This document shows, piece after piece, positions 23,217 to 46,522 of a stretch of 56,069 nucleotides of DNA (the first letter of the stretch is position 1; each line of letters opens with the position of its first letter). This DNA comes from Lachnospiraceae bacterium (GTDB taxonomy: Bacteria; Bacillota; Clostridia; Lachnospirales; Lachnospiraceae). A program made the position numbers and the translations under genes. The notes under the pieces were generated by a model. The model did no database searches. It saw only the letters and a program-made list of their open reading frames with translations, and had not been told where the DNA came from. Location of the stretch: NCBI GenBank assembly GCA_963588615.1, contig CAVAJA010000028.1, forward strand, positions 1 to 56,069. The letters run 5' to 3'.

Positions 23217-23386
23217 AAAGGATGGACTGCAGCATCTTTGCAGCAACAGATTTTTAATTGTAATTAATGAATTGCATGATAAAGTAAAAGTGTTCTGAAA
23301 TTTCAAGATAGATCTTCTGATTTTGATGCGGGAAGCCCTGCTGCTTGGGGACCTTTGCCGAACGATATGTTATCTGGGGGAATGGA

Positions 23387-26300: not shown

Positions 26301-29300
26301 CGGGGGAGGTGTCTTTGCTGGTTTCGGGAGCGGGAACAGATGGGGCAGAGGAGGTCACGATTGCTTCCGATGGTGAGCAGAATGTGGAACAGAGTTCTGT
26401 GACGGAGACGGAGGCTAAAATTGACAACAATGAAAAGGAACAGACGGTACTGGAGAACGTGGCGGCCTCGAATTCCATCGCCTATGTCTCCGGGTTGTTC
26501 GTCCGCATTGCCAACGTAAAGGATGAGGAGCATTTCGGCGGGCAAACGGTGCCGCGTGTCACGGTTGCCAAAACGAGCGATAAGGGGATTATAACGAATC
26601 CGACCGCGATTCCGGCAACGGAGAACACGAACGGCGGGGAAGCATATCAGGGCAGCTATTACGGCTATGACTATGCCTTTGATGTATATGAGGGGGAGAA
26701 GTATTATTTCCTCATCATTTCGAGCTCCTGTGTGATTCCGGGGAGTTACACGTTGACGGAGCTGGCCGAGGCGAACAGTCTGCGGCTGATTCTGCTGGAT
26801 AAAGAAACGCTGGAGGTCGTGCGTGAGAGTGTCCTCCCCAAGAGTGAATATAAGGAGACCGGCGCCGATACGGGGAGAAGGGATTATTTCTTCACATCGC
26901 CCCTTATCAGTGCAGACAATCTGACGGAGGATAAGCTTACCGATACAGAGAAGGCTCAGCTCAAGGGAAAGGACGGATATCTGGACCAGAGCGGCTACTA
27001 TGTCGCTTCTACGTTGATCACGAATCTCTCCGGTGTGATTGCGATGGCATCCGATGACAGCTCGGAGGAGGCCGATCCGGGGTACGGGCTGTACGTTGCC
27101 CGCGGCGGCAATTACGAGAAGGATCATCCGAGTGCTTTCCAGGATTACATTAAGGTCGGCGGAATCCAGCCAAGGCAGATGGCTTTTGCCAATACCGATG
27201 CGAGAAATCCGCAGCTGGTGTTCACGGATCAGAACGACTTCTATGCACTGAACGTGCTGGATCTGTGTACGAATACGCAGTACCCGTACAGCCTGCAGTG
27301 CTCGAACATCGTGACGAAATCCATGGAAGGGCCGGTGTACAGTCTGCAGTCTGTGGAGGGTGTGCTGTATGCCGTTGTGGACGGTGAGCTGTGCCGCATC
27401 AACACGAGCTTTAATGATGTGAATACGCTCACGGTGGCCACAACGAAAATGGGAAGCACCACAGAGACGAATTCCTACGTCCAGGTTCCGGAAATGGACT
27501 GCATGAAGCTGCTGAAGGACAAGGATACGGATACCATTTTCGGTGTGATTGCAATGAATATTTCGGGATCGCCGGACGAGAACTGGAATGCTTCTACAGA
27601 CAGCCGGATTCTGGTGTATACCATTTCGGATGCCAGCACGGAGAAACCGGTGATCAGCGGACCGACTTCCTATGATGTGGAAAAGCGGCAGATGTTCCAG
27701 ACCGTGTGTGCGATTGAAACGGGAGAAAGCGACACCGATTGGGTGCTGCGGGTCCTGTATCTTGCGGATGAACAGCAGAAAAAGATATCGACCTACGAGA
27801 AGAATGACACGACGGAGGCCGATGAATACGTCCCTGGTACGATCAGCTCGACCTGCAATCTGTACATGTGGGAGCTGCACGGAGGAAGAGCGGCGAAGCT
27901 GGAAGGGATCTCCGTAGAGGACACCGTGATCAAGAAGTCGGATAAAACATTCAAAATGCAGCTGTCCGTTAAGAACGTCGGGACGGAGCGTGTGAAATCG
28001 GTCACGTTCTGTGTGACGGATGACAAGAACAGTACGGGACAGCTGTATACCGTGGAGAAGGTCGGCACAGAAAACGGAATCGGTCTTGGAAGCACGGCGA
28101 CCATTGAGGCAGATATTGACATTCAGGATAACTGGAAGGGAACGACGACACTGTACGCGAAGATCCTGAAGGTGAACGGCGAGGAAATGTCAGAGGGCTT
28201 TACGCCGGAGTGGATCAGTGTCGGAGAGCTCTGGGAAAACGGAGACTTTGAGATTGAGGCGTCGGAGACCGGAATCGGACGGAATCCTTATGCACACGTA
28301 AAGATCATCAATCACTCGAACCGATCCTTCAAGGACGTGGCGCTTCTGGTGGAGAAACAGGACAACAGCGGCAGTTGGACGACTGTGGCGCAGTACGATT
28401 TCAGCAGTTTGAACGGGGCGGAGGCCACCGGCGCGGATGATGAGGAAAAAGTGGAAATTGTCGACATTCCGCTGAAAACGCTCTGGGACAGCATGGAGGT
28501 TGCCGCAGCCAGATTTACGCTGGTCGGACAGAACGACATCACGCTGAACAATGCTTATGCGTCGAGCGAAACGCTGTATCACAGCAATTACGGACAGTAC
28601 CTGTGGACGAATGTCCGTGTATCTTCCTCAGATGATTCCATGGGGACGGCTGCTGTAAAGGCGAACGACGGCACGCAGGAGGGCGATGGATCCTCGGTTT
28701 ACGTGCAGCTGAACACTGAGGTCACACTCAGCGCAGAGGCCTGCGAGAACTATGAGTTCGACCACTGGGAGATTCAGAGCGTATCAGGCGAATGGTTCCG
28801 TCTGGAAGAAGGGGCGGAGTTCACAGCACGCGCCGGCGAGGAACGGGTAATCGGTGAAAATGCGGACGGAACCAAGGAAGTTCTGCCGGAGGGCACGGAT
28901 TATATGCTGAGAGCCTGCTTTAGGGTGGCATCGGATAAATCCCGCATTACGGTGATGTCACTGGAGAAAACGACAGTGACGGATGAAGACGGAACGGTGA
29001 CCGTTTCCTATGCGTACAACGCAGAGATTCCGGAGGAAAGGATCACGCTGGAGGACGGCACATCGGCCGAAGAATATCTTGCAAATGGTTTTCTGGGAGA
29101 GAATACGGCCTATCTGCTGAATGCGGGGCAGAAAATCAAGCTGTCGACACCGGAGACGAAGGTCACAACAACAGAATACGACTGGACAGATGACTGGGTA
29201 TTTGACGGCTTCTATTATTTCACCTACACGGGCGGAGTATATTCGATCGCGGACAATGCAGAGGCTGCCGGAGAGACAGAAGGTGAGGGCAACAGCAGGA

Positions 29301-31500: not shown

Positions 31501-31747
31501 GTGTCTTCTTGCCTGAAAAAACATTTCATAAAATATTGGCGCAGAATGAAATATGAGCTAAGATGGAAACTATAGAGGCGTTTCCGGCGGAGTTTGCTGG
31601 TTTGCAGACGTAAAATTCCGGCCCTGCGGTGTGCAAAGTTCGCCGAATGAGAGACGTGGTCATATGGAGGATGGCTGGTGCTGAATATGATAAAATTGCA
31701 CATGATTTCATCATATAGTCGGCACAAAATTGGTGAAAAGAGGTAAA

Positions 31748-31954: not shown

Positions 31955-32803
31955 ATGATTGAGGGAAGCTGCAAGGAGAAGATACGCGGCCGAATACCGC
32001 GCCTGACCAGTACGGAAGCGAAGATCGCGAATTATATTGTGGAGCATTTTGATGATGTTCTCTCGCTGAACGTTGCGGAATTGGCCAAGGAAGTGGGAGT
32101 TTCGGATGCTTCTGTAGTCAGATTCTCAAGGAGTGTCGGATTCAAGGGATTTCAGGATCTGAAAATGAATATGGCAAGAGACATCCTGCCTCACGAGAAA
32201 GAGGTCAATCCGATTCTGGTGAAAGGCGATGACACGGAGGCGATCTGCCGGAAAATCTTTGCTTCTGAGGAGAATGTGCTGCATCGAACACTTATGGAGC
32301 TGGATCTGGAAGTGGTGGAGCGTGCGGCTGCGAAGATCGGGAAGGCCAGAAAGGTCGTGATGTTCGGGACGGGAGGCAGTCAGAAGGTGGTTCAGGACGC
32401 GCAGCATAAGTTCCTGAAGGTGGGGTATGCAGTGACTGCGCATGAAGACATTGACCTGCAGCTCATGGAGTCTGCACTCATGACCAAGGAGGATGTGGCG
32501 GTCTGTATCTCGTTTTCGGGGAACAATTCTCATGTCCTTGAGTGCATGAAGACCGCACACAGCAAAGGAGCATATTGCCTGGGGATCATCAGTCTTGGGA
32601 AATCTGCGGTTTCCAAGCAGGTGGATGATGTGCTGTATGCCTCATATGATGAAACAATATTTCAGTCGGAATCCGTGAGTACGAGGATCGCCCAGCTGGC
32701 AATCATTGACTGCCTGGTGAGCTGTGTCGCAATGACGAATTATGAATATGCGCGCAGATCCATCAACCATACGCGGGAGGCGACCATTACCAGTAAATAC
32801 TGA
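31955..32803 (+). CDS. MurR/RpiR family transcriptional regulator
   Basis: LTSTEAKIANY, ELAKEVGVSDASVVRF..GFKGFQDLK HTH; SIS domain with GTGGS, ISFSG and SRIAQL-like motif. Confidence 0.93.
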   Translation: MIEGSCKEKIRGRIPRLTSTEAKIANYIVEHFDDVLSLNVAELAKEVGVSDASVVRFSRSVGFKGFQDLKMNMARDILPHEKEVNPILVKGDDTEAICRKIFASEENVLHRTLMELDLEVVERAAAKIGKARKVVMFGTGGSQKVVQDAQHKFLKVGYAVTAHEDIDLQLMESALMTKEDVAVCISFSGNNSHVLECMKTAHSKGAYCLGIISLGKSAVSKQVDDVLYASYDETIFQSESVSTRIAQLAIIDCLVSCVAMTNYEYARRSINHTREATITSKY

Positions 32804-32927
32804 GAGAATCCGCGCGGGGGATCTCCGGGCGCACAAATCAAAGACGCTGTGCAAGATGGCGCTGACAGGTTTGGAAGCCTGAAAATTATATAACTGCAGG
32901 TTCCTTGAAACAATCGGAGGGAGCGGT

Positions 32928-32972
32928 AAAGAGCCGTGATTGTGCACTTGCTGCACAGTCACGGCTCTTTTT
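32928..32972 (+). terminator. Terminator after the RpiR regulator gene
   Basis: AAAGAGCCGTGATTGTGCA...TGCACAGTCACGGCTCTTTTT. Confidence 0.85.
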
Positions 32973-33182
32973 GCGCGGACTGCAGAGCTAAAAATGCAGA
33001 TTCCCGGGAAGGGATGTGAAACCCATTCGGACAGGGGAGCGGCAAATCGGATGAAATGCAGAGGAACGGACGAAAGCAGCAGGTTTTTACTGATTTTCGC
33101 GGATTGTGGAGGGATATTTGTGAGAAGCGCACAAAAAAGAGAGAACAAAATGAAACAAAACGACAAAATAAAAAGAAGGGTA

Positions 33183-33241
33183 TTGAAATAAAATTACAGA
33201 TGAGCTACAACTATTTCAGCAAACAAAGAAATGAAATTTCA
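33183..33241 (+). promoter_or_regulatory. Candidate promoter with two RpiR-type operator palindromes
   Basis: TGAAATAAAATTACA (overlaps TTGAAA) and GAAATGAAATTTC just upstream of the AAGGAGG RBS. Confidence 0.45.
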
Positions 33242-33261
33242 AGCCAAGGAGGAATGGTGTG

Positions 33262-34314
33262 ATGAAGGCAGTCATTTTACATGGGCCGGACAATTACCCG
33301 AATAACTATGAGGTTACCGAAATCGAAAAGCCTTCCTGCGGAGAGGACGAGATCGTTGTCCACATGAGAGCGGCTGCTCTGTGCGGAACAGATAAGCGAA
33401 TCTTCACAGGGGCCAAAACAAAGGGGGTCCGTCCGGATTCCGTTGTGGGACATGAGATTTGCGGTGACATCGCTGAGGTTGGTGCAAAGGTAGAAGGATA
33501 CCGTGTTGGCGAGAAGGTTGCAATTGCAAACGTGATTCCCTGCGGACACTGCCCTGCATGCCTCTCGGGAAGAGAGAATGCCTGCACCAATCGCAAGGCA
33601 ATCGGCTATGAGTTCAACGGTGGCTTTGAGGAGTATATCGAGGTACCGAAAATCTGCATCGAGGCAGGAAACGTTGTCAAGCTGCCGGAGGATGTCAGCT
33701 ATGAGGCCGGCGCTTTGATCGAGCCACTGGCATGCTGCATCCGCGGTCTCCGGAATACAGGCACCGGATTCAATGATACTGTGCTGATCATCGGCGCAGG
33801 CCCCATTGGTCTGATGCATCTGGAGCTCTCCAAGATTGCCGGTGCCAAGAAGGTTATCGTCAGCGAGCTGGATGCAGACAAGCGTGAAATTGCAAAGAAT
33901 CTCGGTGCAGATCGCGTGGTTGACTCTGCAGCAGAGGATCTGGCCGCAGTGATTGCAGAAGAGACCGACGGTTTCGGCGTAGATCGAATTGTTATGGCAA
34001 TCGGTGTAACCGGTCTTGTGAACGACACGCTGAAGCTTGCAAAGAAGGGCGGCACGGTTTGCCTGTTTGCAGGATTCCCGAAGGGAAAGACGGCCGACAT
34101 CGATCCGTCCATCATTCACTACAACGAGCTGAATGTGACCGGATCTACCGCATACAAGAGAATTGACTATCTGCAGGCAGCCGACATGGTAAAGACCAAG
34201 AAGATCGATCTGGATGCCATTGTATCCGCCAGATATTCACTGGATGATTTCCGGGAGGCACTGGATCTGCATATGTCCGGCAAGGCACTGAAGGTTCTGG
34301 TAGTCAACGAATAA
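33262..34314 (+). CDS. Zn-dependent polyol / sugar-acid dehydrogenase (MDR family)
   Basis: CGTD, GHE, CGHCPAC...C, EPLAC, GAGPIG. Confidence 0.9.
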   Translation: MKAVILHGPDNYPNNYEVTEIEKPSCGEDEIVVHMRAAALCGTDKRIFTGAKTKGVRPDSVVGHEICGDIAEVGAKVEGYRVGEKVAIANVIPCGHCPACLSGRENACTNRKAIGYEFNGGFEEYIEVPKICIEAGNVVKLPEDVSYEAGALIEPLACCIRGLRNTGTGFNDTVLIIGAGPIGLMHLELSKIAGAKKVIVSELDADKREIAKNLGADRVVDSAAEDLAAVIAEETDGFGVDRIVMAIGVTGLVNDTLKLAKKGGTVCLFAGFPKGKTADIDPSIIHYNELNVTGSTAYKRIDYLQAADMVKTKKIDLDAIVSARYSLDDFREALDLHMSGKALKVLVVNE

Positions 34315-34386
34315 GAACGGAACAGATGGGAAGCGATGATGCCGGGAAAACGGCTCACAATACACACAAAATAAGGAGAATGAAAG

Positions 34387-35298
34387 ATGGGCGTAGTAAC
34401 TGAATCTGCAGCACCGATGTATGCAATGGGAAAAGCGGTAAGACTTTCCCGCATGGTAAATTCGGAGAGCAACAAGATGATGGCAATCACGGTTGACCAT
34501 GCAACCTCCAGAGGAATTGCTCCGATGACCGGAATCCATGATATTCAGGGAGCAATCGACAAGATCGTTCTGGGGCATCCGGATGCAATGACCATGACCT
34601 GGGGAATTCAGAAGAGATGCTGGGGACCTCACGTAGGATCCGGAATCTCCATCCTGCACAAGATTTCCAACTATGCACCGACCTCTCCCACCAACGATAT
34701 GATATTCGGCTCTGTAGATGCTGCCATTCGTTCCGGTGCAGATGCGGTATCTCTTGGCTGCATGACTCTGGGTGATTTCCAGAACGAGCAGTTCGAGAGA
34801 ATCGGTGAGATTTCCGAGTACTGCGATGAAGTCGGCATGCCTCTGATCGGCCATATCTATCCGAAGGGCGAGAGCGTTCCTGCAGACAAGAGAACTGCAT
34901 GGGAGAACATCGCATACTGCGCAAGAAGTGCAGCAGAGCTTGGTCTGGACGTTGTTAAGACGACCTACACCGGTGATCCCGAGTCCATGGCAAAGGTCAT
35001 TGCCTGCGTTCCTTCTACCTTCCGCGTTGTCATTCAGGGCGGAGATACCCCGAAGGGGCTTGAGGGCGATGCACTTCTGGACTACTACTTCCAGATGACA
35101 AGAGATGCTCTGGATGCCGGCTGCGGCGGCGTTACGATGGGCAGATGGGTATGGGATTACAAGGACGTTACTGCTCTTGTCATTGCACTCAGAAGACTGA
35201 TTCACAAGGGATATTCCGCAAAGGAGACAAGACAGCTGCTTGAGACCGTTGAGCAGGATAAGAATTATGCAGATTACCTGGATCTGAACAAGGGTTGA
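34387..35298 (+). CDS. DhnA/FbaB/LsrF-type class I aldolase
   Basis: ITVDH, GADAVS, GMPL, RSAAELGLDVVKTTYTGD (Schiff-base Lys), GG, GVTMGR. Confidence 0.88.
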   Translation: MGVVTESAAPMYAMGKAVRLSRMVNSESNKMMAITVDHATSRGIAPMTGIHDIQGAIDKIVLGHPDAMTMTWGIQKRCWGPHVGSGISILHKISNYAPTSPTNDMIFGSVDAAIRSGADAVSLGCMTLGDFQNEQFERIGEISEYCDEVGMPLIGHIYPKGESVPADKRTAWENIAYCARSAAELGLDVVKTTYTGDPESMAKVIACVPSTFRVVIQGGDTPKGLEGDALLDYYFQMTRDALDAGCGGVTMGRWVWDYKDVTALVIALRRLIHKGYSAKETRQLLETVEQDKNYADYLDLNKG

Positions 35299-35317
35299 GC
35301 GGCAGAGGAGTTAAGTG

Positions 35318-36847
35318 ATGGCCAGATATTTGTTAGGCGTGGATGTCGGAACCACCAGTCTGAAGGTGGCAATCATCGACGAAAATGCACGACTTCTAGG
35401 GATTTCCAGCAGTAAATATCGCCTGATCACTCCGGATCAAAGTTCAGTTCAGATTGACGCTGAGAGCATGTGGGATGCCTTTGTGACCTGTGTTCGGTTA
35501 TTGAAAGAGGGCAAGGACATCGATCTGTCAGCAGTTGCCGGCATCAGCATCTCTTCTCTGTGCCCGGGCCTGATCGCCCTGGGTGCAGACGGAGAGGTTT
35601 TGGTGGATCCGATCATTTATTCGGATCGCAGAAGTACGGAAGAGGCAGACTTGATTCTCGCCTCTGTAGGAAGAGAAAAGCTGTTCGAGATTACGGCCAA
35701 CAGTTCCATGGCCGGGGCCTTTTCCGGCTCCTCAATGCTGTGGATCAAACGCCACCTCCCCGATGAATATGCTAAAACAAAGTATTTTGGCCACTTGAAC
35801 ACTTTTCTTGCCTTCCGTATGACAGGAGAGATTGGAATCGACTGTTCCAATGCATCTTATACAAATCTGTTTGAGACGACAGGCGGGAAGAAGTGGTCGG
35901 AGTACCTTTGCGAAAAGATCGGAATCGAGCGGGAAAAGCTGCCGGAGATTCATGAATCAACGGATGTTATCGGCGGACTGATCAACAAAGAGCTGATTCA
36001 GATGGGAATTCCGGAGGGAACACCGGTTGCGATCGGCGGAGCAGATACGCCGTGTGCCACCCTGGCGGCAGGCGTTACGAGAGCAGGCGATGTGTGTGAA
36101 TCGGTAGGAACAACCGACGTGCTGACCGTGTGCATCGATAAGCCGGTCTTCGACAGAGGGTTCATCAACCGATGCCACGTGGTGCCGGGGACATGGATCT
36201 ATCAGGGGGCGATGTCCTTTACCGGTGCGGCGAATGAATGGTTTCTGAATCAGTTCTACGGTGATCTGATCGAGAAGGCCGAGGATATGGGAGATGCGTT
36301 CAGCAGGATGAATGCAGATGCCGCATTGGCAGAGCCGGGCTGCGGAGGGGTTGTTTTCCTTCCGTATATGCTGGGAGAGCGGAGTCCGATCTGGGATTCC
36401 TATGCAAGAGGGGTATTCTTCGGGATATCCTTGAAAACCACAAGAAAAGAAATGAACCGGGCGGTTCTGGAAGGATGCGGCTATGGCCTGCGGCAGCTTT
36501 CAGAGATTGCCGAGAGAATAACAGGAAATACCATTTCAGGCTTTACATCGATTGGCGGAGGGGCCAAGAGTGAGGTCTGGGCTCAGATCAAGGCGGACAT
36601 CACAGGGAAGACGCTTAAGATTCTGGATATGCGCGATATGGCACCGGTGGGTGCTGCCATGTTGGCGGGCGTAGGAGCCGGCGTTTTCAAAGATGTGTAT
36701 GAAGCATCCGAGAAAGTGGAGAAAACGGTATATCGGATTGTCGAGCCGAGGCATGACAACGATGAGATCTATGCCAGAAGATTTGAGGTTTACACGAGCT
36801 TATATCCTGCGCTGAAGGACATCTTCAGGAAGAATATCACAGGATAA
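35318..36847 (+). CDS. FGGY family carbohydrate kinase (xylulokinase-like)
   Basis: LGVDVGTTSLK, SDRRS, GGAD, FLPYMLGERSP, RAVLEG, GGGAKS..WAQIKAD. Confidence 0.92.
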   Translation: MARYLLGVDVGTTSLKVAIIDENARLLGISSSKYRLITPDQSSVQIDAESMWDAFVTCVRLLKEGKDIDLSAVAGISISSLCPGLIALGADGEVLVDPIIYSDRRSTEEADLILASVGREKLFEITANSSMAGAFSGSSMLWIKRHLPDEYAKTKYFGHLNTFLAFRMTGEIGIDCSNASYTNLFETTGGKKWSEYLCEKIGIEREKLPEIHESTDVIGGLINKELIQMGIPEGTPVAIGGADTPCATLAAGVTRAGDVCESVGTTDVLTVCIDKPVFDRGFINRCHVVPGTWIYQGAMSFTGAANEWFLNQFYGDLIEKAEDMGDAFSRMNADAALAEPGCGGVVFLPYMLGERSPIWDSYARGVFFGISLKTTRKEMNRAVLEGCGYGLRQLSEIAERITGNTISGFTSIGGGAKSEVWAQIKADITGKTLKILDMRDMAPVGAAMLAGVGAGVFKDVYEASEKVEKTVYRIVEPRHDNDEIYARRFEVYTSLYPALKDIFRKNITG

Positions 36848-36875
36848 AATAGGGCACAAAGGAAAAGGAGAGATC

Positions 36876-38042
36876 ATGAAAAAGAAAATTATGGCTGTGG
36901 TATTGGCGGCAGCAATGGCAGCGATGTCGCTGGCAGGCTGCGGATCTTCTGCAAGCTCTTCCACACAGACGAGCAGCACCGAAGCATCCGAGGAGACCGA
37001 GGAGACTGCAGATGCAGCAGAGGAGACTGAGGAGACAGCGGATGCTGAGACTGAAGATGCTGCAGCAGAGGGCACGATCACCTATACGGAGAAGCCTGAA
37101 ATTGCAAGCGGGGCAACCAAGATTACGATTGCTGTTCCGGATCCGGACGGATCGTACATTGCAACGGCTGCTACGGAATTTGCCAATCGTGCAATGACCT
37201 ATGCAAATGGAACACTGGATATCACCGTTTCCGGAAACGGATCCTTGTACGGCGGCGATACCGCAGCAGGTATTAAGATGCTGTCTGCAGGATCTCTGCA
37301 GATGCTGATTCTGGCTTCGAGCGTGTACGCAAGCTTCATCCCCGGAATGAACGTTATTTCTGTTCCCTACATGTTCGATGATCAGGCTCAGCTCCTGGAT
37401 TACCTGAACAGCGAGACCGGTACAGAGCTGTTCAGCCGTGTGGAGGACATGGGCATCACAGCAGCAGGTGCATGGACGAGATCCTTCCGCGAAGTGACGA
37501 ACTCCAAGAGACCGATCACCTGCCCGGACGATCTGAAGGGACTGGTTCTGCGCGTACCGAACAACTCTCTGTATGTTGAGTTCTTCAGCGCATGCGGTGC
37601 GGTTACGACCCCTATGAACTTCTCTGAGGTTTACAATTCCCTTCAGCTGAACACACTGGACGGCCAGGAGAACCCGGTCGATGTTCCTTATTCCAACAAG
37701 TTCTATGAGGTTCAGAAGTACATCTCCTACACCAATCACATGGCAGATGCATGGGTAGTCGGCATCAATTCCGATTTCATGAGCAGTCTGACACAGGAGC
37801 AGCAGGATGCCATCACAAAGGCAGCACAGGAAGTGCAGAGCTGGAACGTTGATTACATGGAAGAGCAGGATCAGGTCGCTTTGAAGACACTTACCGACAA
37901 CGGAATGGAAGTAAACGAGCTGTCCGACGAAGCAATTCAGCAGTTCATCGAGATTTCTCAGTCCTGCTATGACAAGTTCAAGGAACTCATCGAGGACGAT
38001 GATCTGTTCAACGCTACTACTGAATTCACAGGCAGAAGCTGA
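36876..38042 (+). CDS. dctP: TRAP transporter substrate-binding lipoprotein
   Basis: LAGC lipobox, E/T/A-rich repeated linker, DLKGLVLRV (carboxylate-binding Arg), FSEVYNSLQ..LDGQENP. Confidence 0.92.
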   Translation: MKKKIMAVVLAAAMAAMSLAGCGSSASSSTQTSSTEASEETEETADAAEETEETADAETEDAAAEGTITYTEKPEIASGATKITIAVPDPDGSYIATAATEFANRAMTYANGTLDITVSGNGSLYGGDTAAGIKMLSAGSLQMLILASSVYASFIPGMNVISVPYMFDDQAQLLDYLNSETGTELFSRVEDMGITAAGAWTRSFREVTNSKRPITCPDDLKGLVLRVPNNSLYVEFFSACGAVTTPMNFSEVYNSLQLNTLDGQENPVDVPYSNKFYEVQKYISYTNHMADAWVVGINSDFMSSLTQEQQDAITKAAQEVQSWNVDYMEEQDQVALKTLTDNGMEVNELSDEAIQQFIEISQSCYDKFKELIEDDDLFNATTEFTGRS

Positions 38043-38174
38043 CAGACGGTTCGCGGCATCTGAAGTTCTGATACAACATGTATGACAGCCTGTGCGCCCC
38101 GAATGACGATGGGCGGGGCGCATGGGATTGCCTATAAAGGGCAGGGTCATGCAGTGGATGGAGGGTTAGTTAAA

Positions 38175-38711
38175 ATGGAACGCAAAAAGTCCAAGCTATC
38201 CGGGTTTTTCGACGTTGTGAATAAGATCGAGGATATCATTCTGGCGATTCTGGTGATCGGAATGATTGCAACGATCCTGCTGCAGATTATCGGCAGAATT
38301 GTGGGGCATCCGTTCCCGTGGACAGAGGAGACTTCACGGTATCTGTTCCTGTGGATGATGTTCGTCGCTCTGGCAGCCGGATTTAATATGTGCGAGTCCT
38401 CTCGCGTAACACTGCTGCTGCAGGTCGGTCCCAAGTGGCTGAAAAAAGTAAGCGAGGTTCTCTATTTTGTTGTTGTAGAAGGGTTCTTTGCCTTCATGTT
38501 CATTTACGGTCTGCAGGTGGTTCAGCAGCAGATCTCCCTGAATGAGATGGGAACGGCACTTCGCATTCCGATGTATCTCATCGGCATCTGCCAGCCGGTC
38601 GGTGCAGTAATGGGCTTTATCGGAACAATTCAGAGTTTCCTGGAGTATCACGGCAAGGTCGCCATCGGCGATAAGGAAACCGAGAAACAGAAGGCACTTG
38701 AGAATGGTTGA
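38175..38711 (+). CDS. dctQ: TRAP transporter small permease
   Basis: Four TM helices, PWTEETSRYLFLW. Confidence 0.9.
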   Translation: MERKKSKLSGFFDVVNKIEDIILAILVIGMIATILLQIIGRIVGHPFPWTEETSRYLFLWMMFVALAAGFNMCESSRVTLLLQVGPKWLKKVSEVLYFVVVEGFFAFMFIYGLQVVQQQISLNEMGTALRIPMYLIGICQPVGAVMGFIGTIQSFLEYHGKVAIGDKETEKQKALENG

Positions 38712-38724
38712 GGAGGATTAGAAA

Positions 38725-40005
38725 ATGAGTGCGGCTATAATTATTCTCTTCATGGTTCTGATGTTCCTGGGAGTGCCGATCGCAGTATCCTTGGGCGCAG
38801 CATCCGTGATCGTGATGGCAACAATGTCATCACTTCCTCTGAGCATGGCAGCACAGTCCATGTTCACATCGATGAACTCTTTCATCATGGTAGCAGTTCC
38901 GCTGTTTATCCTCTGCGGTTCCCTGATGGACGAGGGCGGAATCGCAGATCGTATCTATGATCTGGCAGAGGCACTGGTCGGCTGGATTTACGGCGGCCTC
39001 GGACATGTATCGGTTGTGGTGAATATGCTGTTCGCCGGAATGTCCGGTTCTTCTGTTGCAGCAATTGCCTCCATCGGCAAGATGAGCATCAATGCTCTGG
39101 ATAAGAAGGGTTATCCGAAGGATTACGCAACTGCCATCAACCTGTCCGGCTCCATGCTGGCATCGGTTATCCCGCCTTCGATTCTGATGATCAATGCGGC
39201 GGCAACCGGCAACGTATCCATTGGTCAGGCTCTGCTGGGCGGCTTCATCCCGGGTCTTATCATCGGCTTCGTGTTCATGGTATACAATTATTTTTACTGC
39301 AAGAAGCACGGCATCGGAGATCGCATTCCGTTCAATGTCGGAAAGCTGGGAAAGGCTTTTGTCCGCGCCATTCCTGCTCTGCTGACTCCGGTTATTCTGC
39401 TGGGCGGCGTGTACACCGGCTTCTACACTCCTACTGAGGGCGCAGCCATCGCCGTAGCATATACCTGCCTGGTATCCATCTACGTGTTCAAGAATCTGAA
39501 GTGGAGGGATATCCCCCGCATCATGATCAAGAACGCACGTTCCACCGGAACCATCCTGTTCGTGGCAATCGCTGCAAAGCCGGCGTCTCTTCTGTTTGAG
39601 ATCGACGGACTTCCGAGCCGCGTTGCGAACATGATCTCCGGAATCTCCGACAACAGAATCGTGATTCTCTTCGTTCTGTATCTGTTCCTGATCGTCGTAG
39701 GAATGTTCATGGATGCAACGGCAGCCATCTTCATCCTTGTGCCGATTCTGCTCCCTGCAGTGCAGACCGTTGGTGTTTCACCGCTGTTCTTCACGGTATT
39801 CCTGGTAATCACTCTTTCCTTTGGCCTGATTACTCCTCCGGTCGGTGTGTGCCTGTACGCGGCAGAAAATGTGACGGGACTGCCATTGGAAAAGATCATC
39901 AAGGCATCGATCCCGTGGATCATATTGATCGCAATTTCCCTTTGCGTATTCATTATCTTCCCGCAGATCATTGAGGTGCCGGTGGCATTGATATTCGGAA
40001 CCTGA
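38725..40005 (+). CDS. dctM: TRAP transporter large permease
   Basis: AVPLFIL, GGLGHV, FAGMSGSS, IPPSI, TPTE, GLITPPVG. Confidence 0.93.
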   Translation: MSAAIIILFMVLMFLGVPIAVSLGAASVIVMATMSSLPLSMAAQSMFTSMNSFIMVAVPLFILCGSLMDEGGIADRIYDLAEALVGWIYGGLGHVSVVVNMLFAGMSGSSVAAIASIGKMSINALDKKGYPKDYATAINLSGSMLASVIPPSILMINAAATGNVSIGQALLGGFIPGLIIGFVFMVYNYFYCKKHGIGDRIPFNVGKLGKAFVRAIPALLTPVILLGGVYTGFYTPTEGAAIAVAYTCLVSIYVFKNLKWRDIPRIMIKNARSTGTILFVAIAAKPASLLFEIDGLPSRVANMISGISDNRIVILFVLYLFLIVVGMFMDATAAIFILVPILLPAVQTVGVSPLFFTVFLVITLSFGLITPPVGVCLYAAENVTGLPLEKIIKASIPWIILIAISLCVFIIFPQIIEVPVALIFGT

Positions 40006-40011
40006 TAAAAC

Positions 40012-40052
40012 AAGGGCCTTTCATCTGATACAATCTGATGGAAGGCTTTTTT
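40012..40052 (+). terminator. Probable terminator after dctM
   Basis: GCCTTTCATC...GATGGAAGGC followed by a T run. Confidence 0.6.
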
Positions 40053-40083
40053 AAACAAGAAGAATAGAAGGAGATATGACATT

Positions 40084-41052
40084 ATGAAAATCGTCGTTTT
40101 GGACGGATATACCGAGAATCCCGGAGACCTCTCCTGGGAGAGCCTGGAAGCGCTTGGAGAGGTAACAGTTTATGACAGGACTTCGTACGTGGAGGCACCG
40201 ATCATCGCAGAGAGACTCGGCGATGCGGACGTTGCTGTCATCAATAAGACACCGATTTCGAAGGAGACGATCGATGCCTGCCCGAACCTGAAGCTGATTG
40301 CAGTTCTGGCAACGGGATACAACGTTGTAGACTATAACTATGCAAAGGAAAGAGGAATCCCGGTCGTGAATGTTCCTACCTACGGCACACAGATCGTCGG
40401 ACAGTATGCGGTAGGACTCCTGCTCGAGATCTGCTCTCATTTCGCAGCACATGATGCAGCGGTAAAGGAAGGCAGATGGGAGAACAATGAGGACTGGTGC
40501 TTCTGGGACTATCCGATGATCGAGCTGTACGGCAAGACCGCGGGCATCATCGGTTTCGGCCGCATCGGTCAGGCAACCGGAAAGATTCTGAAGGCTATGA
40601 ACATGCGCGTTCTGGTCAACGACAAGTTTGAGTCGGAGTCCGGAAAGGCCATTGCAGATGCCTATGTTGACAGAGATACGCTTCTGAAGGAATCAGATGT
40701 TATTTTCCTTCACTGCCCGCTCTTCCCGGACACAGAGGGACTGATCAACAAAGAGAATATTGATAAGATGAAGGACGGCGTCATCATCATCAACAACAGC
40801 CGCGGCCAGCTGGTGGTGGAGCAGGATCTGGCGGATGCGCTGAATTCCGGAAAGGTGTACGCTGCAGGACTGGATGTTGTATCGACAGAGCCCATCAAGG
40901 GGGACAACCCGCTCCTGACAGCGAAAAACTGTCTGATTACGCCTCATATTTCATGGGCGGCACAGGCGGCAAGGCAGCGCATCATGGACATCACGGCAGA
41001 CAACATCAAGGCATTCCAGAACGGACAGCCTGTCAACGTGGTGAATCAATAA
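40084..41052 (+). CDS. D-2-hydroxyacid dehydrogenase (glycerate dehydrogenase / hydroxypyruvate reductase-like)
   Basis: NPGDLSW, ATGYNVVD, GIIGFGRIG, LHCPL, NNSRG, LDVVSTEP, TPHISW. Confidence 0.9.
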   Translation: MKIVVLDGYTENPGDLSWESLEALGEVTVYDRTSYVEAPIIAERLGDADVAVINKTPISKETIDACPNLKLIAVLATGYNVVDYNYAKERGIPVVNVPTYGTQIVGQYAVGLLLEICSHFAAHDAAVKEGRWENNEDWCFWDYPMIELYGKTAGIIGFGRIGQATGKILKAMNMRVLVNDKFESESGKAIADAYVDRDTLLKESDVIFLHCPLFPDTEGLINKENIDKMKDGVIIINNSRGQLVVEQDLADALNSGKVYAAGLDVVSTEPIKGDNPLLTAKNCLITPHISWAAQAARQRIMDITADNIKAFQNGQPVNVVNQ

Positions 41053-41155
41053 GAAACAGACGGAAGCGGTTTACCGAAGCGGAAACGTATTCAGCGGGGC
41101 AAGGGAGCTAAACTTCCATGCGGCCGATTGCGTGAGCGGATGTGAATAGGGGAGA

Positions 41156-42484
41156 ATGGAAATGGATAAAAACTTATCGTTTGATTATTCCAATGCAGCA
41201 TCTTTTCTGGGCGAGAATGAAGTTCGCGAGATGAAGTTTACAGCGGAGAATGCCGCGGAAAAGCTGAAATCCGGCAAAGGCGAGGGAAATGATTTTCAGG
41301 GCTGGATCGATCTGCCGGTCAACTACGACCGCGAGGAGTTCGACCGCATCAAGAAGGCGGCGAAAAAGATTCAGGGTGATTCTGACATTCTGTTCGTTAT
41401 CGGAATCGGAGGCTCCTATCTGGGAGCCCGTGCAGCCATCGAATTCCTGCGTCATGCATATTATAACGAGGTTCCGGATGAACAGCGCGGCACGCCGAAA
41501 ATTTATTTCGTCGGCAACAGCATGAGCGGAACCTATATCGAGGAGGTAATTGATCTGATAGGCGATCAGGATTTCTCGATCAATGTCATCTCCAAATCGG
41601 GAACCACGACGGAGTCCGCCATTGCGTTCCGCGTGTTCCGGAAGCTTTTGATTCAGAAATACGGAAAGGAAGAGGCTGCACGCCGCATTTATTCCACAAC
41701 GGATCAGGCGAGGGGGGCTCTGAAGACGCTCTCGGATGCAGAGGGCTATGAGTGTTTTGTCATTCCGGACGATATCGGCGGACGCTTCTCGGTACTGACG
41801 GCGGTAGGCCTGCTTCCGATCGCCGTGAGCGGCGCCGACATCGATCAGCTGATGGCAGGTGCTGCGGCTTACCGTGAAATCGCACGAAAAGAGCCGTACG
41901 AGAACAATCCGTCTCTTCTGTACGCAGGACTTCGGAACATTCTGTACCGCAAGGGCAAGACGGTGGAAATTCTGGTGAACTACGAGCCGAGTCACCACTA
42001 CATCTCGGAGTGGTGGAAACAGCTTGCCGGCGAGAGCGAAGGAAAGGATCAGAAGGGAATTTTCCCTGCATCTGTGGATTTGACCACGGATCTGCATTCT
42101 ATGGGACAGTTCATTCAGGAGGGCTCAAGGATCAAGTTTGAAACAGTTCTGAATCTGGAGAAGCCCAAGCGCGACTTTGTTCTGGAGGCGGAAGAGAATG
42201 ATCTTGACGGTTTGAATTATCTGGACGGCAGGACGATGGATTTCGTCAACAAGTGCGCCATGAAGGGAACGATGAATGCTCACGTCGAGGGCGGCAATCC
42301 GAACCTGATGGTGAACATCCCGGAGCAGAACGAATTCTATCTGGGGCAGCTGTTCTATTTCTTTGAGTATGCAATTGCGGTCAGCGGATACATCAATGCC
42401 ATCAATCCGTTCAACCAGCCCGGTGTTGAATTCTACAAGAGCAACATGTTCAAGCTGCTCGGAAAGCCCGGCTACGATAAGTAA
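41156..42484 (+). CDS. pgi: Glucose-6-phosphate isomerase
   Basis: [50 protein letters not shown]. Confidence 0.96.
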
Positions 42485-42570
42485 AATGTGAATCGGGTTA
42501 AGACTCCTCCTTGCTGAAAACGGACACGAGGATACTCTGACCCGTGACTCATACCATATCAATCCTCAAC

Positions 42571-42615
42571 AGCGAAAGCGCCTGATCCGGAAAATACGGA
42601 TCGGGCGCTTTCGCT
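42571..42615. terminator. Inverted repeat between convergent pgi and the DapA-like gene
   Basis: AGCGAAAGCGCCTGATCCG...CGGATCGGGCGCTTTCGCT. Confidence 0.8.
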
Positions 42616-42654
42616 GTGGAAAAGCATATAATTTCAGGCTTTTCGGTCAGAATT

Positions 42655-43554
42655 TTACAGGAGCCCGGCAGCGGTCATGGTATCTGCGAACCCCTTTGCG
42701 GCGGGACCTTCCGGCGTGGGGAGAGAAGGCAGATAGGGAACGCCTACATCGCGACCGCGAAGGGATGCCATATCCTTGGCGGCAACGGGGAAGCTGGCGG
42801 CGTCCATGGAAAGGCGGACGGGATTGAGCTTGAACTGTGCCTCAAGGCTTCCCTTCTGATCACCGGCAGCATATTTGTTGTAGATATCGGTGATCAGTTC
42901 CGGCATGAAGTTGGCTGCGGTGCAGACACCGCCGACGGCACCGTGACAAAGGCTGGCGTAGAGGAGCGTATCCTTGCCGCCGAATACCCTGAAATTCACA
43001 TCCCGGGTGCGGCGGATGAATTCGGAGGTCAGGGTGATGTCACCGCTCGTATCCTTCATGCCGACAATGTTGGGAATATTGTGAGCCAGCTCGTCCACGA
43101 GCTGGGCAGTGAGGCCGTAGCCGACACGCCCCGGATTGTTGTACAGGAGCATGGGGGTGTCGGGAATGCTCTCTGCAATCGTCTTAAAATGCAGGTACAG
43201 CTCTGCATAGGTCGGCTTCAGGAACATCGGCTGCAGTACACTGACAGCGGCGGCACCGTTTGCCGCGGCCATTTTGGCAAGCCGGCAGCACTTTCTGGTG
43301 TTGATGGCGCCGATGCCGAAATAGACCGGAACCCGGCCGGCGGCCTGATCGACCATGATCTTCAGGCCGCGCTCCATTTCATCCTCTTCGAGCATATAGA
43401 ACTCGCCGTTGGATCCGAAAGCCAGGATTCCGGAGACGCCGCCCTCGATTACATAATCTACCTGGCTCCGCTGACGGGCCTCATCAATGAGCTCGTTCTC
43501 ATCGCAGCAGGTTAGAATGGGTACAACCACACCCTTGATAAATTCAGTATTCAT
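42655..43554 (-). CDS. DHDPS/NAL family aldolase (2-keto-3-deoxy sugar-acid aldolase-like, probably not true DapA)
   Basis: GSNGEF in place of GTTGE, LLYNNP, GMKDTSGD; co-transcribed with garR. Confidence 0.85.
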   Translation of the reverse strand: MNTEFIKGVVVPILTCCDENELIDEARQRSQVDYVIEGGVSGILAFGSNGEFYMLEEDEMERGLKIMVDQAAGRVPVYFGIGAINTRKCCRLAKMAAANGAAAVSVLQPMFLKPTYAELYLHFKTIAESIPDTPMLLYNNPGRVGYGLTAQLVDELAHNIPNIVGMKDTSGDITLTSEFIRRTRDVNFRVFGGKDTLLYASLCHGAVGGVCTAANFMPELITDIYNKYAAGDQKGSLEAQFKLNPVRLSMDAASFPVAAKDMASLRGRDVGVPYLPSLPTPEGPAAKGFADTMTAAGLL

Positions 43555-43562
43555 ACAGCACC

Positions 43563-44450
43563 TCAGCGTCCGATCTCGATATCAGCCATCATTTCATAAT
43601 ACTGGGCAATGGCACTGTGATCCGCCTGCCCCTTGTCGTGACTGTGGAGCCACTGGAGGACTTCCTGAACCTCGGCAGTCATGGGGACGGGAGCGCCTAC
43701 GCTGTGGGCACAGTCCAGAGCATTGTTCAAATCCTTGATGTGCAGATCGATCTTGAAGCCGGGCTTGTCGTTTCCTTCGATCATCATCGGAGCCTTGGCA
43801 TTCATGACGGTGGAGCCTGCCAGTCCTCCCTTGATGGCCTGGAACACCAGCTGGGGATCCACACCGGCCTTTTGTGCAAGGGTCAGCGCCTCAGCCAGAG
43901 CCTGAATGTTGCAGGCTACGATGATCTGATTGGCGAGCTTGGTTGTATTGCCGGCACCTACCTCGCCGCAGCGGACGACAGAGGAACCCATTGCCAGAAG
44001 AAGAGGCTTGAAGGTGTCGAACACCTCCTGCTTGCCGCCGACCATGAAGCTGAGCGTGCCGTCGATGGCCTTCGGCTCGCCGCCGGAAACAGGCGCATCC
44101 AGCATTTCAATTCCCTTTTTCTCCAGTTCTGCATAGATCTCTTTGGAGGCTACGGGGTTGATGGAGCTGCAGTCGATGAAAACAGAACCTGCTTTCATGA
44201 AGCTTGCCACCTTTCCGTCTTCGAGCATGACACTTTTGACCTGAGGAGAGTTGGGCAGCATGGTGATTACGACATCGCACTGCTCACCGATTTCCTGATA
44301 GGTGGAGGCTGCCTTTGCGCCTGCAGAAACGAGTTCCTCTACAGGGGCCTGACTGCGGTTGTAAACCAGAAGGTCGGTGTAGCCGTTTTTCAGAAGATTT
44401 TTAGCCATGGGCTTTCCCATGATGCCGAGTCCGATAAATCCGATTTTCAT
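43563..44450 (-). CDS. garR: 2-hydroxy-3-oxopropionate (tartronate semialdehyde) reductase
   Basis: KIGFIGLGIMGKPM, TMLPNSPQVK, DAPVSGGEPKAIDGTLS, KLANQ, PGFKIDLHIKDL.NAL. Confidence 0.93.
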   Translation of the reverse strand: MKIGFIGLGIMGKPMAKNLLKNGYTDLLVYNRSQAPVEELVSAGAKAASTYQEIGEQCDVVITMLPNSPQVKSVMLEDGKVASFMKAGSVFIDCSSINPVASKEIYAELEKKGIEMLDAPVSGGEPKAIDGTLSFMVGGKQEVFDTFKPLLLAMGSSVVRCGEVGAGNTTKLANQIIVACNIQALAEALTLAQKAGVDPQLVFQAIKGGLAGSTVMNAKAPMMIEGNDKPGFKIDLHIKDLNNALDCAHSVGAPVPMTAEVQEVLQWLHSHDKGQADHSAIAQYYEMMADIEIGR

Positions 44451-44575: not shown

Positions 44576-46522
44576 TTATTTCAAAACGATTCCGTATTTT
44601 TTCATGCGGCGCCAGAGCGTTGTTTTGCTGATGCCGAGTGCATCGGCGGCGGCCTGACGGTTTCCGGCGTGCTGCTTTAGGAGCTCCTCGAGCTCAGCGG
44701 CCCGGGGGTCCTTGATCACCACGACCTGTTCGGGATGAGGAGCGATGCGAGGTGCCATTTGCTCCAGCTCTTTTTGAAGGAATACTTCATCGATGGTGCG
44801 GCGTTCTGCCGTCAGGACGATGCGCTCGCACAGCCCGCGGAGCTGATCAAGATTGCCGGGCCAGGAATACTGCCGCAGGTAATCCCTTGCCCCCTGTGTC
44901 AGAGTGAAATAGCGCTTGTATCGTTTCTGAGCTTCCCTCATGCAGCTGTCGATCCAGGGGAGAATGTCATCGCGGCGCTCCCGCAGGGGCGGGAAATGCA
45001 GAGAAAGGACGTTCAGCCCGTAGTACAGATCACCGCGGAAGGTTCCCTGCTCCACCATGGAAACAAGATTAGTGCTGGTGGAGGCAATGACGCGGATGTC
45101 GGCACAAATGGGGCGGCTGGTGCCATTCCTGCGCAGCTTGCCGCGAATCAGCTGCAGCACCTTGTACTGAAGGGAAGGCGGGAGACTGTCCACGTGCTCG
45201 AGACAAAGCGTCCCCTTCTGTGCAGCCTCGGCGTAGCAGGTGTCCGAATCGGATCGGACGGAATAGCTGCCGAAGAGCAGAATGTCGAGGTCTTCCGGAT
45301 CAAAGGCAGCGCAGTCCACATCGACGAAGGCATTGGAAGCGGCAAGGCTTGCGTTGTGGAGGCACTGCGCCAGAATCAGATTTCCGTTTCCATGTTCGCC
45401 GGTGATCAGGACCGGAGCCGGGAATTTAGCAAATCTTTTTGCACGTATGAAAAGCTTTCGGGTTTGGGAATCTGCAGCGGGAAGCTGATCAAACTGGTAT
45501 CTGGCGACAAAGCCGCGCTGATAGAATTCCTCGCGAAGCCGATTGTCAATCTCAATGATCCGGTGGCTCTCCTGAAACGTCATGATGGCCCCGCAGATCT
45601 GTTCTTCTATGAGGATAGGAGCAATGTTGACAACAACCGCATGATTTTCGATGGGGACCAGGAGCGCGTAGGCTTCCTCTCCGCTGCAGAGCACTTTGTG
45701 CAGGATATCCTCCTGCAGCTTGGGAAAAATATCCCGAACGGAGTGTCCGAGGAGTGCGGAAGGATGCAGGTCCAGAAGGGAGCAGACAACACGGTTGCAG
45801 CGGCGGATGACGCCGGAGACATCGATCTGAAGAATTCCGCTGAACGTGAAGTCCAGCATGGTGTTGATTTCGGAGGCATTCTGTTTCTGAAGGTCGATGG
45901 CATGCCCCATATGATTTGCGGCAGAAAGGGCATTTCGGACACTCTCTGTTCCGGAGTGGAGCAGCATGTGCGGAAGCCCTGCTGCAGCTGCTCTGGCGCA
46001 GACAACCTCACCGCCGAAAACCGCATGACAGCCATCCTGAAGCGCCCGGTCAACGAGTGCCTCCAGGGCGGCCCGGGCGGAAATCCCGGCGGAGAAAACG
46101 GAAGCACCCGGATCATCTGCGATGTCCTCGTCCCGCAGCGTGTAGCGAACCAGTTCCATGTCGAACAGCTTTCCAAAGGAGGAGGTATCGTCCAGCGTGT
46201 TCTCGAATCCGATGATGCCGATTTGCGGATGAGCCAGCCCAAGCTGCTGTTTCATATCGAGAACCATAAGCCCCAGTTCCTGAGCTGTGATGGAAATGGT
46301 AATGACAGGGAGCGCGGTCCTGCGGCGGATGACACAGGCCTGAAGTCCCCTTGCAATGATAAGATCACAGTCTGTGCCGTTCAATGCGGCCGCACGGTCA
46401 GAGGCCTCATCGGTGTGGATCTGGTCGATGCACAGCGGCGTAAGATTCGGATATTCTTCGATGAGCTGAGAGCACAGCTCCTTCATCTGCAGCTGAGGGA
46501 CCAGAATGGCGACCTTTGCCAT
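44576..46522 (-). CDS. PrpR-like regulator (PrpR_N-PAS-AAA-Fis HTH) with a degenerate AAA+ domain
   Basis: DLIIARG N-domain, PAS, PVLITGEHGNG, FRGDLYY.LNVL...PPLRERRDDI, WPGN, LGISKTTLWRR. Confidence 0.88.
   Translation of the reverse strand: MAKVAILVPQLQMKELCSQLIEEYPNLTPLCIDQIHTDEASDRAAALNGTDCDLIIARGLQACVIRRRTALPVITISITAQELGLMVLDMKQQLGLAHPQIGIIGFENTLDDTSSFGKLFDMELVRYTLRDEDIADDPGASVFSAGISARAALEALVDRALQDGCHAVFGGEVVCARAAAAGLPHMLLHSGTESVRNALSAANHMGHAIDLQKQNASEINTMLDFTFSGILQIDVSGVIRRCNRVVCSLLDLHPSALLGHSVRDIFPKLQEDILHKVLCSGEEAYALLVPIENHAVVVNIAPILIEEQICGAIMTFQESHRIIEIDNRLREEFYQRGFVARYQFDQLPAADSQTRKLFIRAKRFAKFPAPVLITGEHGNGNLILAQCLHNASLAASNAFVDVDCAAFDPEDLDILLFGSYSVRSDSDTCYAEAAQKGTLCLEHVDSLPPSLQYKVLQLIRGKLRRNGTSRPICADIRVIASTSTNLVSMVEQGTFRGDLYYGLNVLSLHFPPLRERRDDILPWIDSCMREAQKRYKRYFTLTQGARDYLRQYSWPGNLDQLRGLCERIVLTAERRTIDEVFLQKELEQMAPRIAPHPEQVVVIKDPRAAELEELLKQHAGNRQAAADALGISKTTLWRRMKKYGIVLK

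Follow-up and report, generated by a model that had tools for sequence, protein, structure and literature searches.

An apparently undescribed dehydratase-free gene cluster, probably for sugar-acid breakdown, built around a DhnA-type aldolase in a Lachnospiraceae genome

Features of the gene cluster

The window analysed here, a stretch of 56,069 nucleotides that is the whole of contig C28 of a Lachnospiraceae genome (88 % complete), carries nine plus-strand genes between positions 31955 and 42484 that include a DhnA-type class I aldolase, a zinc-dependent dehydrogenase, an FGGY kinase, a tripartite ATP-independent periplasmic (TRAP) transporter and a D-2-hydroxyacid dehydrogenase (Table 1). 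The cluster probably encodes a dehydratase-free aldol route that converts a sugar acid into triose phosphate and glycerate. Open reading frame (ORF) listing and family scans place the genes downstream of the dehydrogenase 13-103 bp apart, and every gene named in an earlier note on this DNA was found where that note had put it, although its list omits the DHDPS-family aldolase between pgi and garR.

Table 1 Features of the plus-strand cluster and of the adjoining minus-strand unit
Feature	Position	Strand	Basis or remark
Operator-like palindrome TGAAA-N5-TTTCA	31514..31528		Upstream of rpiR
RpiR/MurR-family regulator (HTH_6 and SIS domains)	31955..32803	+	Family scans
Operator-like site TGAAA-N5-TTACA	33184..33198		Upstream of dehydrogenase; likely RpiR site
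Zn-dependent medium-chain dehydrogenase/reductase (MDR) family dehydrogenase (ZnDH)	33259..34314	+	Family scans; below every NCBIfam cut-off
DhnA-type class I aldolase (DhnA/DeoC family)	34387..35298	+	Family scans, alignment, structure model
FGGY carbohydrate kinase	35315..36847	+	Below XylB, GntK and LsrK cut-offs
TRAP solute-binding protein DctP, with R226	36876..38042	+	Family scans, alignment
TRAP small permease DctQ	38082..38711	+	True start probably further downstream
TRAP large permease DctM	38725..40005	+	Family scans
D-2-hydroxyacid dehydrogenase (2HADH)	40084..41052	+	GHRC subfamily (HprA-like hydroxypyruvate/glyoxylate reductase)
Second glucose-6-phosphate isomerase (PGI)	41156..42484	+	Housekeeping copy on contig C37, 70 % identical
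21-bp hairpin between convergent units	42569..42617		Likely terminator; -44.9 kcal/mol, z -10.8
DHDPS-family class I aldolase	42655..43554	-	Likely forms pyruvate and tartronate semialdehyde
GarR tartronate semialdehyde reductase	43563..44450	-	TIGR01505, 396 bits (cut-off 341)
PrpR-like sigma54 activator	44576..46522	-	Upstream of garR; family scans

Genome searches for UxaA/GarD, UxuA and KdgA gave matches on other contigs only and none in the window, and a GudD-like protein used as BLAST query had no match anywhere in this genome, in agreement with the earlier note, which had reported the window to be free of these dehydratases and of KdgA. No KdgK was seen by eye in the ORF lists of the window, a family-level search for it not having been made. 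The other contigs hold UxaA beside a UxaB-like gene, UxuA, KdgA, a glycerate kinase and the housekeeping pgi, which is adjoined by a class II fructose-1,6-bisphosphate (FBP) aldolase gene.

Of 61 windows taken in front of the dehydrogenase gene in homologous loci, 35 have a palindrome of the form TGWAA-N5-TTWCA (mean of shuffled sequences 0.26), a count to be read with the pattern having been derived from these same windows and related loci not being independent. It is present in 31 of 43 windows with RpiR versus 4 of 18 without, its three matches in the 56 kb analysed are all at rpiR and the dehydrogenase gene, and in some loci it also precedes glxK, lactonase-ABC genes or SDR-TRAP genes (SDR, short-chain dehydrogenase/reductase). 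The palindrome is likely the RpiR site, as judged from its distribution. Further matches occur at G000:C266:1450 and C83:1276, one of which precedes an ORF that is KdgK-like by eye.

Conservation and distribution

An alignment of 33 aldolases was used as query against GTDB genomes and retrieved 137 relatives, the best 80 of which were analysed as loci; many of the locus contigs are short, and 44 loci have enough flank. BLAST comparison of the window proteins with the 80 loci gave matches for ZnDH in 72, the FGGY kinase in 77, DctP in 60, DctQ in 54, DctM in 59, 2HADH in 55, RpiR in 53, PGI in 14, GarR in 5, the DHDPS-family aldolase in 2 and PrpR in 1. Among the 44 well-flanked loci, ZnDH is found in 42, the FGGY kinase in 42 with a second kinase type in the other 2, DctM in 37, 2HADH in 33, glycerate kinase in 17, PGI in 14 and GarR in 4. 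Hosts given in the record titles include Lachnospiraceae, Oscillospiraceae, Succinivibrionaceae and Synergistota, with one Fusobacterium and one Sphaerochaetaceae genome, and the same gene order is repeated in metagenome loci.

All four proteobacterial loci that were read (L157, L168, L175, L176) carry 2HADH, aldolase, ZnDH and FGGY kinase in reshuffled order. A plasmid of Rhizobium sp. X9 has the order TRAP-2HADH-aldolase-ZnDH-FGGY, each gene being the best match to its window counterpart at 33-49 % identity, and the enterobacterial loci L168, L175 and L176 have the order 2HADH-aldolase-ZnDH-FGGY-MFS, with a glycerate kinase next in two of the three. One of the four has a CdaR-like regulator, and garR is absent from the stretches read. 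Because the core is conserved across phyla, the plus-strand cluster is not a chance assembly. Its spread is patchy: of 24 other genomes in the genus to which the window belongs, one has the aldolase, and the module is in 3 of 401 genomes in the family of genome G271 and 4 of 400 in its class; 400 genomes drawn from its phylum added no further match. Tandem LeuC/LeuD-like pairs of the aconitase family adjoin the cluster on the opposite strand in L048, L049, L060 and L063.

The DhnA-type aldolase

The aldolase model (pLDDT 86) is a TIM barrel with the Schiff-base lysine K191, D37, Y158 and a phosphate site formed by G218-G219 and G252-R253, which together identify it as a DhnA class I enzyme; the roles of these residues are those that we presume for the family. 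Its closest structure is MJ0400 (2QJG; TM 0.78, 33 % identity). All 33 aligned sequences share D37, Y158, K191 and the GG/GR residues, and R42 and H156, also invariant in the clade, replace residues of other DhnA enzymes and serve as marks of the subfamily. A thiolytic route of the LsrK/LsrF kind, which the earlier note had offered as its alternative, is very improbable, as are ADH synthase or plain FBP aldolase functions. All three belong to the same fold family, and the MJ0400 ADH synthase, the T. tenax FBP aldolase and E. coli LsrF share with the window enzyme the Schiff-base lysine, the aspartate and the phosphate site. The window enzyme is at most 33 % identical to them, carries R42 and H156, stands in a different gene context and falls short of the cut-offs for ADH synthase (TIGR01949, 160.5 against 299; NF005556, 185.7 against 241), LsrF (NF006081, 92.9 against 297) and class I FBP aldolase (NF040816, 113 against 430). 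It retains Tyr158 where LsrF differs, the FGGY kinase scores 195 against the LsrK cut-off of 528, no LsrG-, CoA- or DHQ-synthase-II-like neighbour recurs among the clustered ORFs, and the genome already has its class II FBP aldolase beside the housekeeping pgi.

IolC and IolJ are the kinase and aldolase that convert 5-dehydro-2-deoxygluconate to dihydroxyacetone phosphate (DHAP) and malonate semialdehyde. Five loci from the Succinivibrionaceae order (L169-L173), with DeoR, TRAP and IolC-type kinase genes, carry an aldolase with R42 and H156 that is 44-48 % identical to P0387 and lies beside the TRAP genes; the IolC-like kinase is in four of the five, and all three that were tested score over the IolC cut-off. 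This aldolase is likely an unrecognised IolJ replacement, accompanied by uptake of an inositol-derived keto acid. In a quick tree, the only phylogeny made, the IolC-linked clade joins the window clade with 85 % support and a long-branch warning. The relationship points to DHAP as the donor that is set free and to D-threo geometry, the latter presumably being that of the IolC substrate, so that DHAP is likely the donor half of the cleavage in the window enzyme. Position 96 is Tyr in the window enzyme versus Phe in the IolC-linked 2-deoxy clade.

Reductase, glycerate kinases and the C3 product

The operon 2HADH has 5TX7 as its best match in the PDB (320 bits versus 181 for the next), and NK and PHxxW motifs are found in 47 of 52 full-length homologues, which identifies it as a GHRC enzyme. 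According to the available part of PMC6303947, 5TX7 belongs to GHRC, whose sole characterised enzyme has a tight pocket and reduces hydroxypyruvate and glyoxylate. Glycerate kinase genes from two unrelated families have been added to the operon, not always in the same place (19 + 3 = 22 of 80 loci). As the GHRC reductase (55/80) and the glycerate kinases (22/80) recur, the C3 product is likely hydroxypyruvate and not tartronate semialdehyde, and the simplest reading of the gene content is that hydroxypyruvate is likely reduced to D-glycerate and converted to phosphoglycerate. Often a second module lies beside the cluster (L036, L078, L085, L177, L178, L179); it has a split transketolase and in most cases also an SDR, RpiR and a further TRAP system.

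A pentonate, D-arabinonate or L-xylonate, would give a 4-keto-5-phosphate, DHAP and glyoxylate, the last reduced by the GHRC enzyme to glycolate. This is very unlikely. The activity of the subfamily on glyoxylate agrees with it, the stereochemistry would fit, 5-phosphoarabinonate inhibits PGI, and the lactonase of some loci has a phospho-furanose lactonase as its best family match, far below cut-off; the two glycerate kinase types in 22/80 loci, and the glycerate kinase in 2 enterobacterial loci, would be left unaccounted for.

The minus-strand garR unit

The PrpR-like activator, garR and the DHDPS-family aldolase form a minus-strand unit that a 21-bp hairpin parts from the plus-strand operon. 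The arrangement is convergent, as the earlier note had it, but garR, on which it saw the genes converge, belongs to this separate unit. A garR gene is near 5 of the 80 homologous loci. Two of these (L028 and L029, Synergistota) have garR and a 73 % identical DHDPS-family protein on the other strand, together with a GudD-like enzyme (708 bits, cut-off 829), TRAP genes and LysR, so that the minus-strand unit of the window is likely an aldarate-type module. In the other three (L017, L020, L021) garR is co-directional but upstream of the operator-like site. Fifty genomes were chosen from those of the 80 loci that are long and of type A; many are metagenome-assembled and their completeness is unstated. 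GarR is over cut-off in 13 of them and without a match at 1e-20 in 19, Hyi is over cut-off in 0 of 52 cluster genomes, and neither a GarR-like nor a Hyi-like match is found in 17 of the 50, three of which are RefSeq isolate records (L007, L016, L024). Its conservation, its strand, the hairpin and the position of the operator all tell against GarR as the reductase of the pathway, and it was rejected as such. What the earlier note had proposed, an oxidise, phosphorylate and aldol-cleave route with GarR or the D-2-hydroxyacid dehydrogenase acting on tartronate semialdehyde, thus survives as a conserved dehydratase-free module that probably ends in glycerate, with DHAP likely as donor half, and loses GarR and tartronate semialdehyde as its built-in C3 step.

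Tartronate semialdehyde would arise, in an amended form of the chemistry in the earlier note, if the substrate were a linear hexonate (L-idonate/D-gluconate or L-gulonate/D-mannonate) that passes through a 5-keto-6-phosphate to DHAP and this C3 acid, which would then tautomerise to hydroxypyruvate for the GHRC enzyme or be reduced by an unlinked GarR. Such a substrate, if on balance unlikely, is nearly as probable as the branched acid preferred below. The MDR 5-dehydrogenases IdnD and LgoD are known, the related aldolase clade lies beside IolC, and Tyr96 could read the extra hydroxyl that a 2-deoxy substrate lacks. The operon reductase acts on 2-keto acids, no isomerase is seen to bring tartronate semialdehyde there, garR stands outside the operator-marked unit, and the 17 genomes with neither a GarR-like nor a Hyi-like match count against it. 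A tagaturonate-type intermediate, as the earlier note had envisaged, would have the wrong C3/C4 geometry if FBP-type stereochemistry holds.

Dehydrogenase, kinase, transporter and type B operons

The dehydrogenase has a conserved basic cluster (R47, K53, K55, R58, R112), which hints that the kinase acts before it. The FGGY kinase is not of the PfkB family to which IolC belongs. DctP keeps the arginine on which the earlier note had remarked, within an 'LRVPN' motif; it aligns as R226, presumably binds the carboxylate and, in an alignment of 57 DctPs, is invariant at the 97 % level.

Seven of the 80 loci (L047, L058, L066, L076, L080, L084, L085) are type B operons, with the same aldolase, nested in the clade and with matching active-site residues, a different FGGY kinase and a GntP or TRAP transporter; L177 carries both kinase types. 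A 2-keto acid would suit them. In that scheme a 6-phospho-hexonate would be oxidised at C2, and the resulting 2-keto-6-phosphogluconate cleaved to hydroxypyruvate, as donor, and glyceraldehyde 3-phosphate. Hydroxypyruvate would be obtained directly, and 2-ketogluconate, which is common in nature, would be what type B operons take up. The basic cluster of the dehydrogenase fits, and GatD and TarJ are enzymes that oxidise distal to a phosphate. Inhibition of PGI by 6-phospho-aldonates could also explain the extra pgi. However, no DhnA enzyme is known to us to use a 2-keto acid as donor, the phosphate site for DHAP is unaltered, and the related clade is found with IolC. The scheme is improbable, though less so than a pentonate, and is, like the linear hexonate, a close rival of the branched acid preferred below.

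Proposed route and substrate

If the products are DHAP and hydroxypyruvate, the compound cleaved is a branched acid, 2-C-hydroxymethyl-4-keto-pentonate-5-phosphate. The substrate would accordingly be a branched six-carbon acid, most simply 2-carboxy-D-arabinitol (CA, hamamelonate), a reading to which we give a probability of roughly 35 % and which is the one preferred here. The TRAP system would import the acid, the dehydrogenase would oxidise it at C4 and the kinase would phosphorylate it at C5; the aldolase would split the product into DHAP and hydroxypyruvate, and the latter would be reduced to D-glycerate and then phosphorylated, with NADH balanced between the oxidation step and the hydroxypyruvate reduction. 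We infer which acid is used, where it is oxidised and phosphorylated, whether kinase or dehydrogenase acts first, and what the two cleavage products are. CA oxidised at C4 would be 4-carboxy-D-xylulose, with the D-threo geometry of FBP and xylulose 1-phosphate, a match worked out from Fischer projections.

Several observations are in keeping with CA. Leaves form it from hamamelose, sometimes in abundance, according to the available part of PMC9833046, and RhaD, a DHAP aldolase, takes hydroxypyruvate as electrophile in vitro, according to that of PMC6202814. Many of the closest loci have rumen in their record titles, and the canonical UxuA route already coexists with the cluster in 31 of 52 cluster genomes, this one included, which speaks against linear hexonates. 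A phosphotriesterase (PTE)-family lactonase is present in 9 of 80 loci, as would suit a lactone-forming acid, and as 8 of these also have an ABC binding protein, the lactone form is likely taken up too. Isosaccharinate was considered as substrate and set aside; it would yield acetol phosphate, and no genes to use acetol phosphate were seen.

Other observations weigh against a branched substrate. Type B operons lack a ZnDH orthologue (best match 33 % in 5 of 5 genomes checked), and what they import seems to be a keto acid already. A natural linear compound, whether 5-ketogluconate or fructuronate (which GntP could import for a linear hexonate route) or 2-ketogluconate, is the easier fit, and we know of no natural 4-keto-CA. 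Linear acids are also suggested by accessory genes for a KduD/gluconate-5-dehydrogenase-like SDR (5/80) and a psicose-epimerase/IolO-like protein (3/80), both possible accessories to linear hexonate breakdown, and by GntP, KdgT and ACS-MFS carriers. An IolO-like epimerase is present in L177 and L081. The IolC-linked clade would cleave a linear acid in operons without a gene for the C3 semialdehyde, and this genome, like 4 of 5 additional cluster genomes, has a GarR that scores over the cut-off. 2HADH is missing from 11 of the 44 well-covered loci; a transketolase, an enzyme that can consume hydroxypyruvate, is nearby in several of these and also in L178 and L179. The ABC variants have no recurring neighbour that could serve as aldose dehydrogenase for hamamelose, and marine and halophilic genera also have homologues. 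For DctP, the dehydrogenase and both kinase types, searches of the PDB gave no close ligand-informative or characterised relative. A nickel-pincer isomerase (LarA group 22), possibly a sugar-acid epimerase, lies by TRAP genes at L068:15601-16968 and in L081.

The repeated recruitment of PGI, with either of two unrelated types in 19 of 80 loci, is likewise left unexplained by the route favoured here. The catalytic motifs are unchanged in 12 aligned PGIs, and no triose-phosphate isomerase motif was found in any locus. That pgi is merely an adjacent housekeeping gene was ruled out by the second copy on C37 and the recurrence of two PGI types, and for a hexose-phosphate product (a C9 acid, with transaldolase) no natural substrate was found. 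One may speculate that PGI acts as a hydroxypyruvate isomerase, for which no active-site change was seen to speak, or guess that an extra PGI relieves inhibition by a phospho-aldonate intermediate.

Comparison with known systems

The IolC/IolJ step is alike in that, as proposed here, a keto sugar acid receives its phosphate beside the keto group and is then split by an aldolase into DHAP and a C3 acid. The cluster differs in having an FGGY instead of a PfkB kinase, preceded by an MDR dehydrogenase, and a C3 acid that would pass to a hydroxypyruvate reductase and glycerate kinase. The UxuA/UxaA-KdgK-KdgA and GudD/GarD-GarL-GarR-GarK routes share sugar-acid uptake and, in the aldarate route, the glycerate kinase exit, but need a dehydratase and yield pyruvate; none of UxaA, UxuA, GarD, GudD and KdgA is among the recurring neighbours of the cluster. 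The tetronate and apionate routes oxidise, phosphorylate, and cleave or decarboxylate, with the same dehydratase-free acid-sugar logic and some branched substrates; they use DUF1537 kinases, class II aldolase-like decarboxylases, Rubisco-like proteins or transketolases, where the present cluster has a DhnA aldolase and a GHRC enzyme. Catabolism of the hamamelose skeleton by bacteria does exist: the D-hamamelose route of Ochrobactrum anthropi, as far as it is described in the available part of PMC8914248 (citing Kim et al. 2018), ends in an O2-using Rubisco-like protein that gives 3-phosphoglycerate and glycolate, whereas the cleavage proposed here is aldolytic and O2-independent. No Rubisco-like protein was found among ORF clusters in at least 3 loci or among the scanned neighbours.

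The module thus resembles the IolC/IolJ step and is outside the IolC/IolJ, Lsr, ADH synthase and dehydratase routes, so that membership of a characterised pathway, which the earlier note had named as grounds for refutation, was not found. A literature search, with most subscription journals and bioRxiv supplements outside its scope, found no description of the gene set or route, and the available parts of the LPP-1 plasmid paper and one supplement make no mention of such a pathway.

Flanking genes

Positions 23345-31402 (+) encode a secreted protein of 2685 amino acids whose N-terminus is acidic; it contains repeated domains and, at the C-terminus, a membrane anchor followed by a basic tail. 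Genes for an EamA transporter, a U32 peptidase-family protein and a MATE transporter and an ORF that is FeoB-like by eye lie between 46536 and 53535.

Biological significance

The cluster is apparently an undescribed cross-phylum sugar-acid module assembled from known enzyme families. Any of the three leading substrates, branched, linear or 2-keto, would make it a sugar-acid catabolic route without description in the literature searched. Its range takes in Lachnospiraceae, Succinivibrionaceae and Synergistota as well as Rhizobium and enterobacteria, and a role would be found for a subfamily of aldolases that at present go under the names FBP aldolase or ADH synthase. More tentatively, an O2-independent CA pathway may be common to rumen, gut, soil and plant bacteria, with a DhnA enzyme that would be a natural class I aldolase making and breaking a tertiary alcohol, from DHAP and the ketone hydroxypyruvate. 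The module also occurs in bacteria in culture, for example Blautia producta DSM 2950, which permit direct testing. If CA is the substrate, the route would name a microbial fate of a common leaf metabolite, the precursor of the Rubisco inhibitor 2-carboxy-D-arabinitol 1-phosphate (CA1P), and the synthesis of branched sugars would gain a natural DHAP aldolase that accepts ketones.

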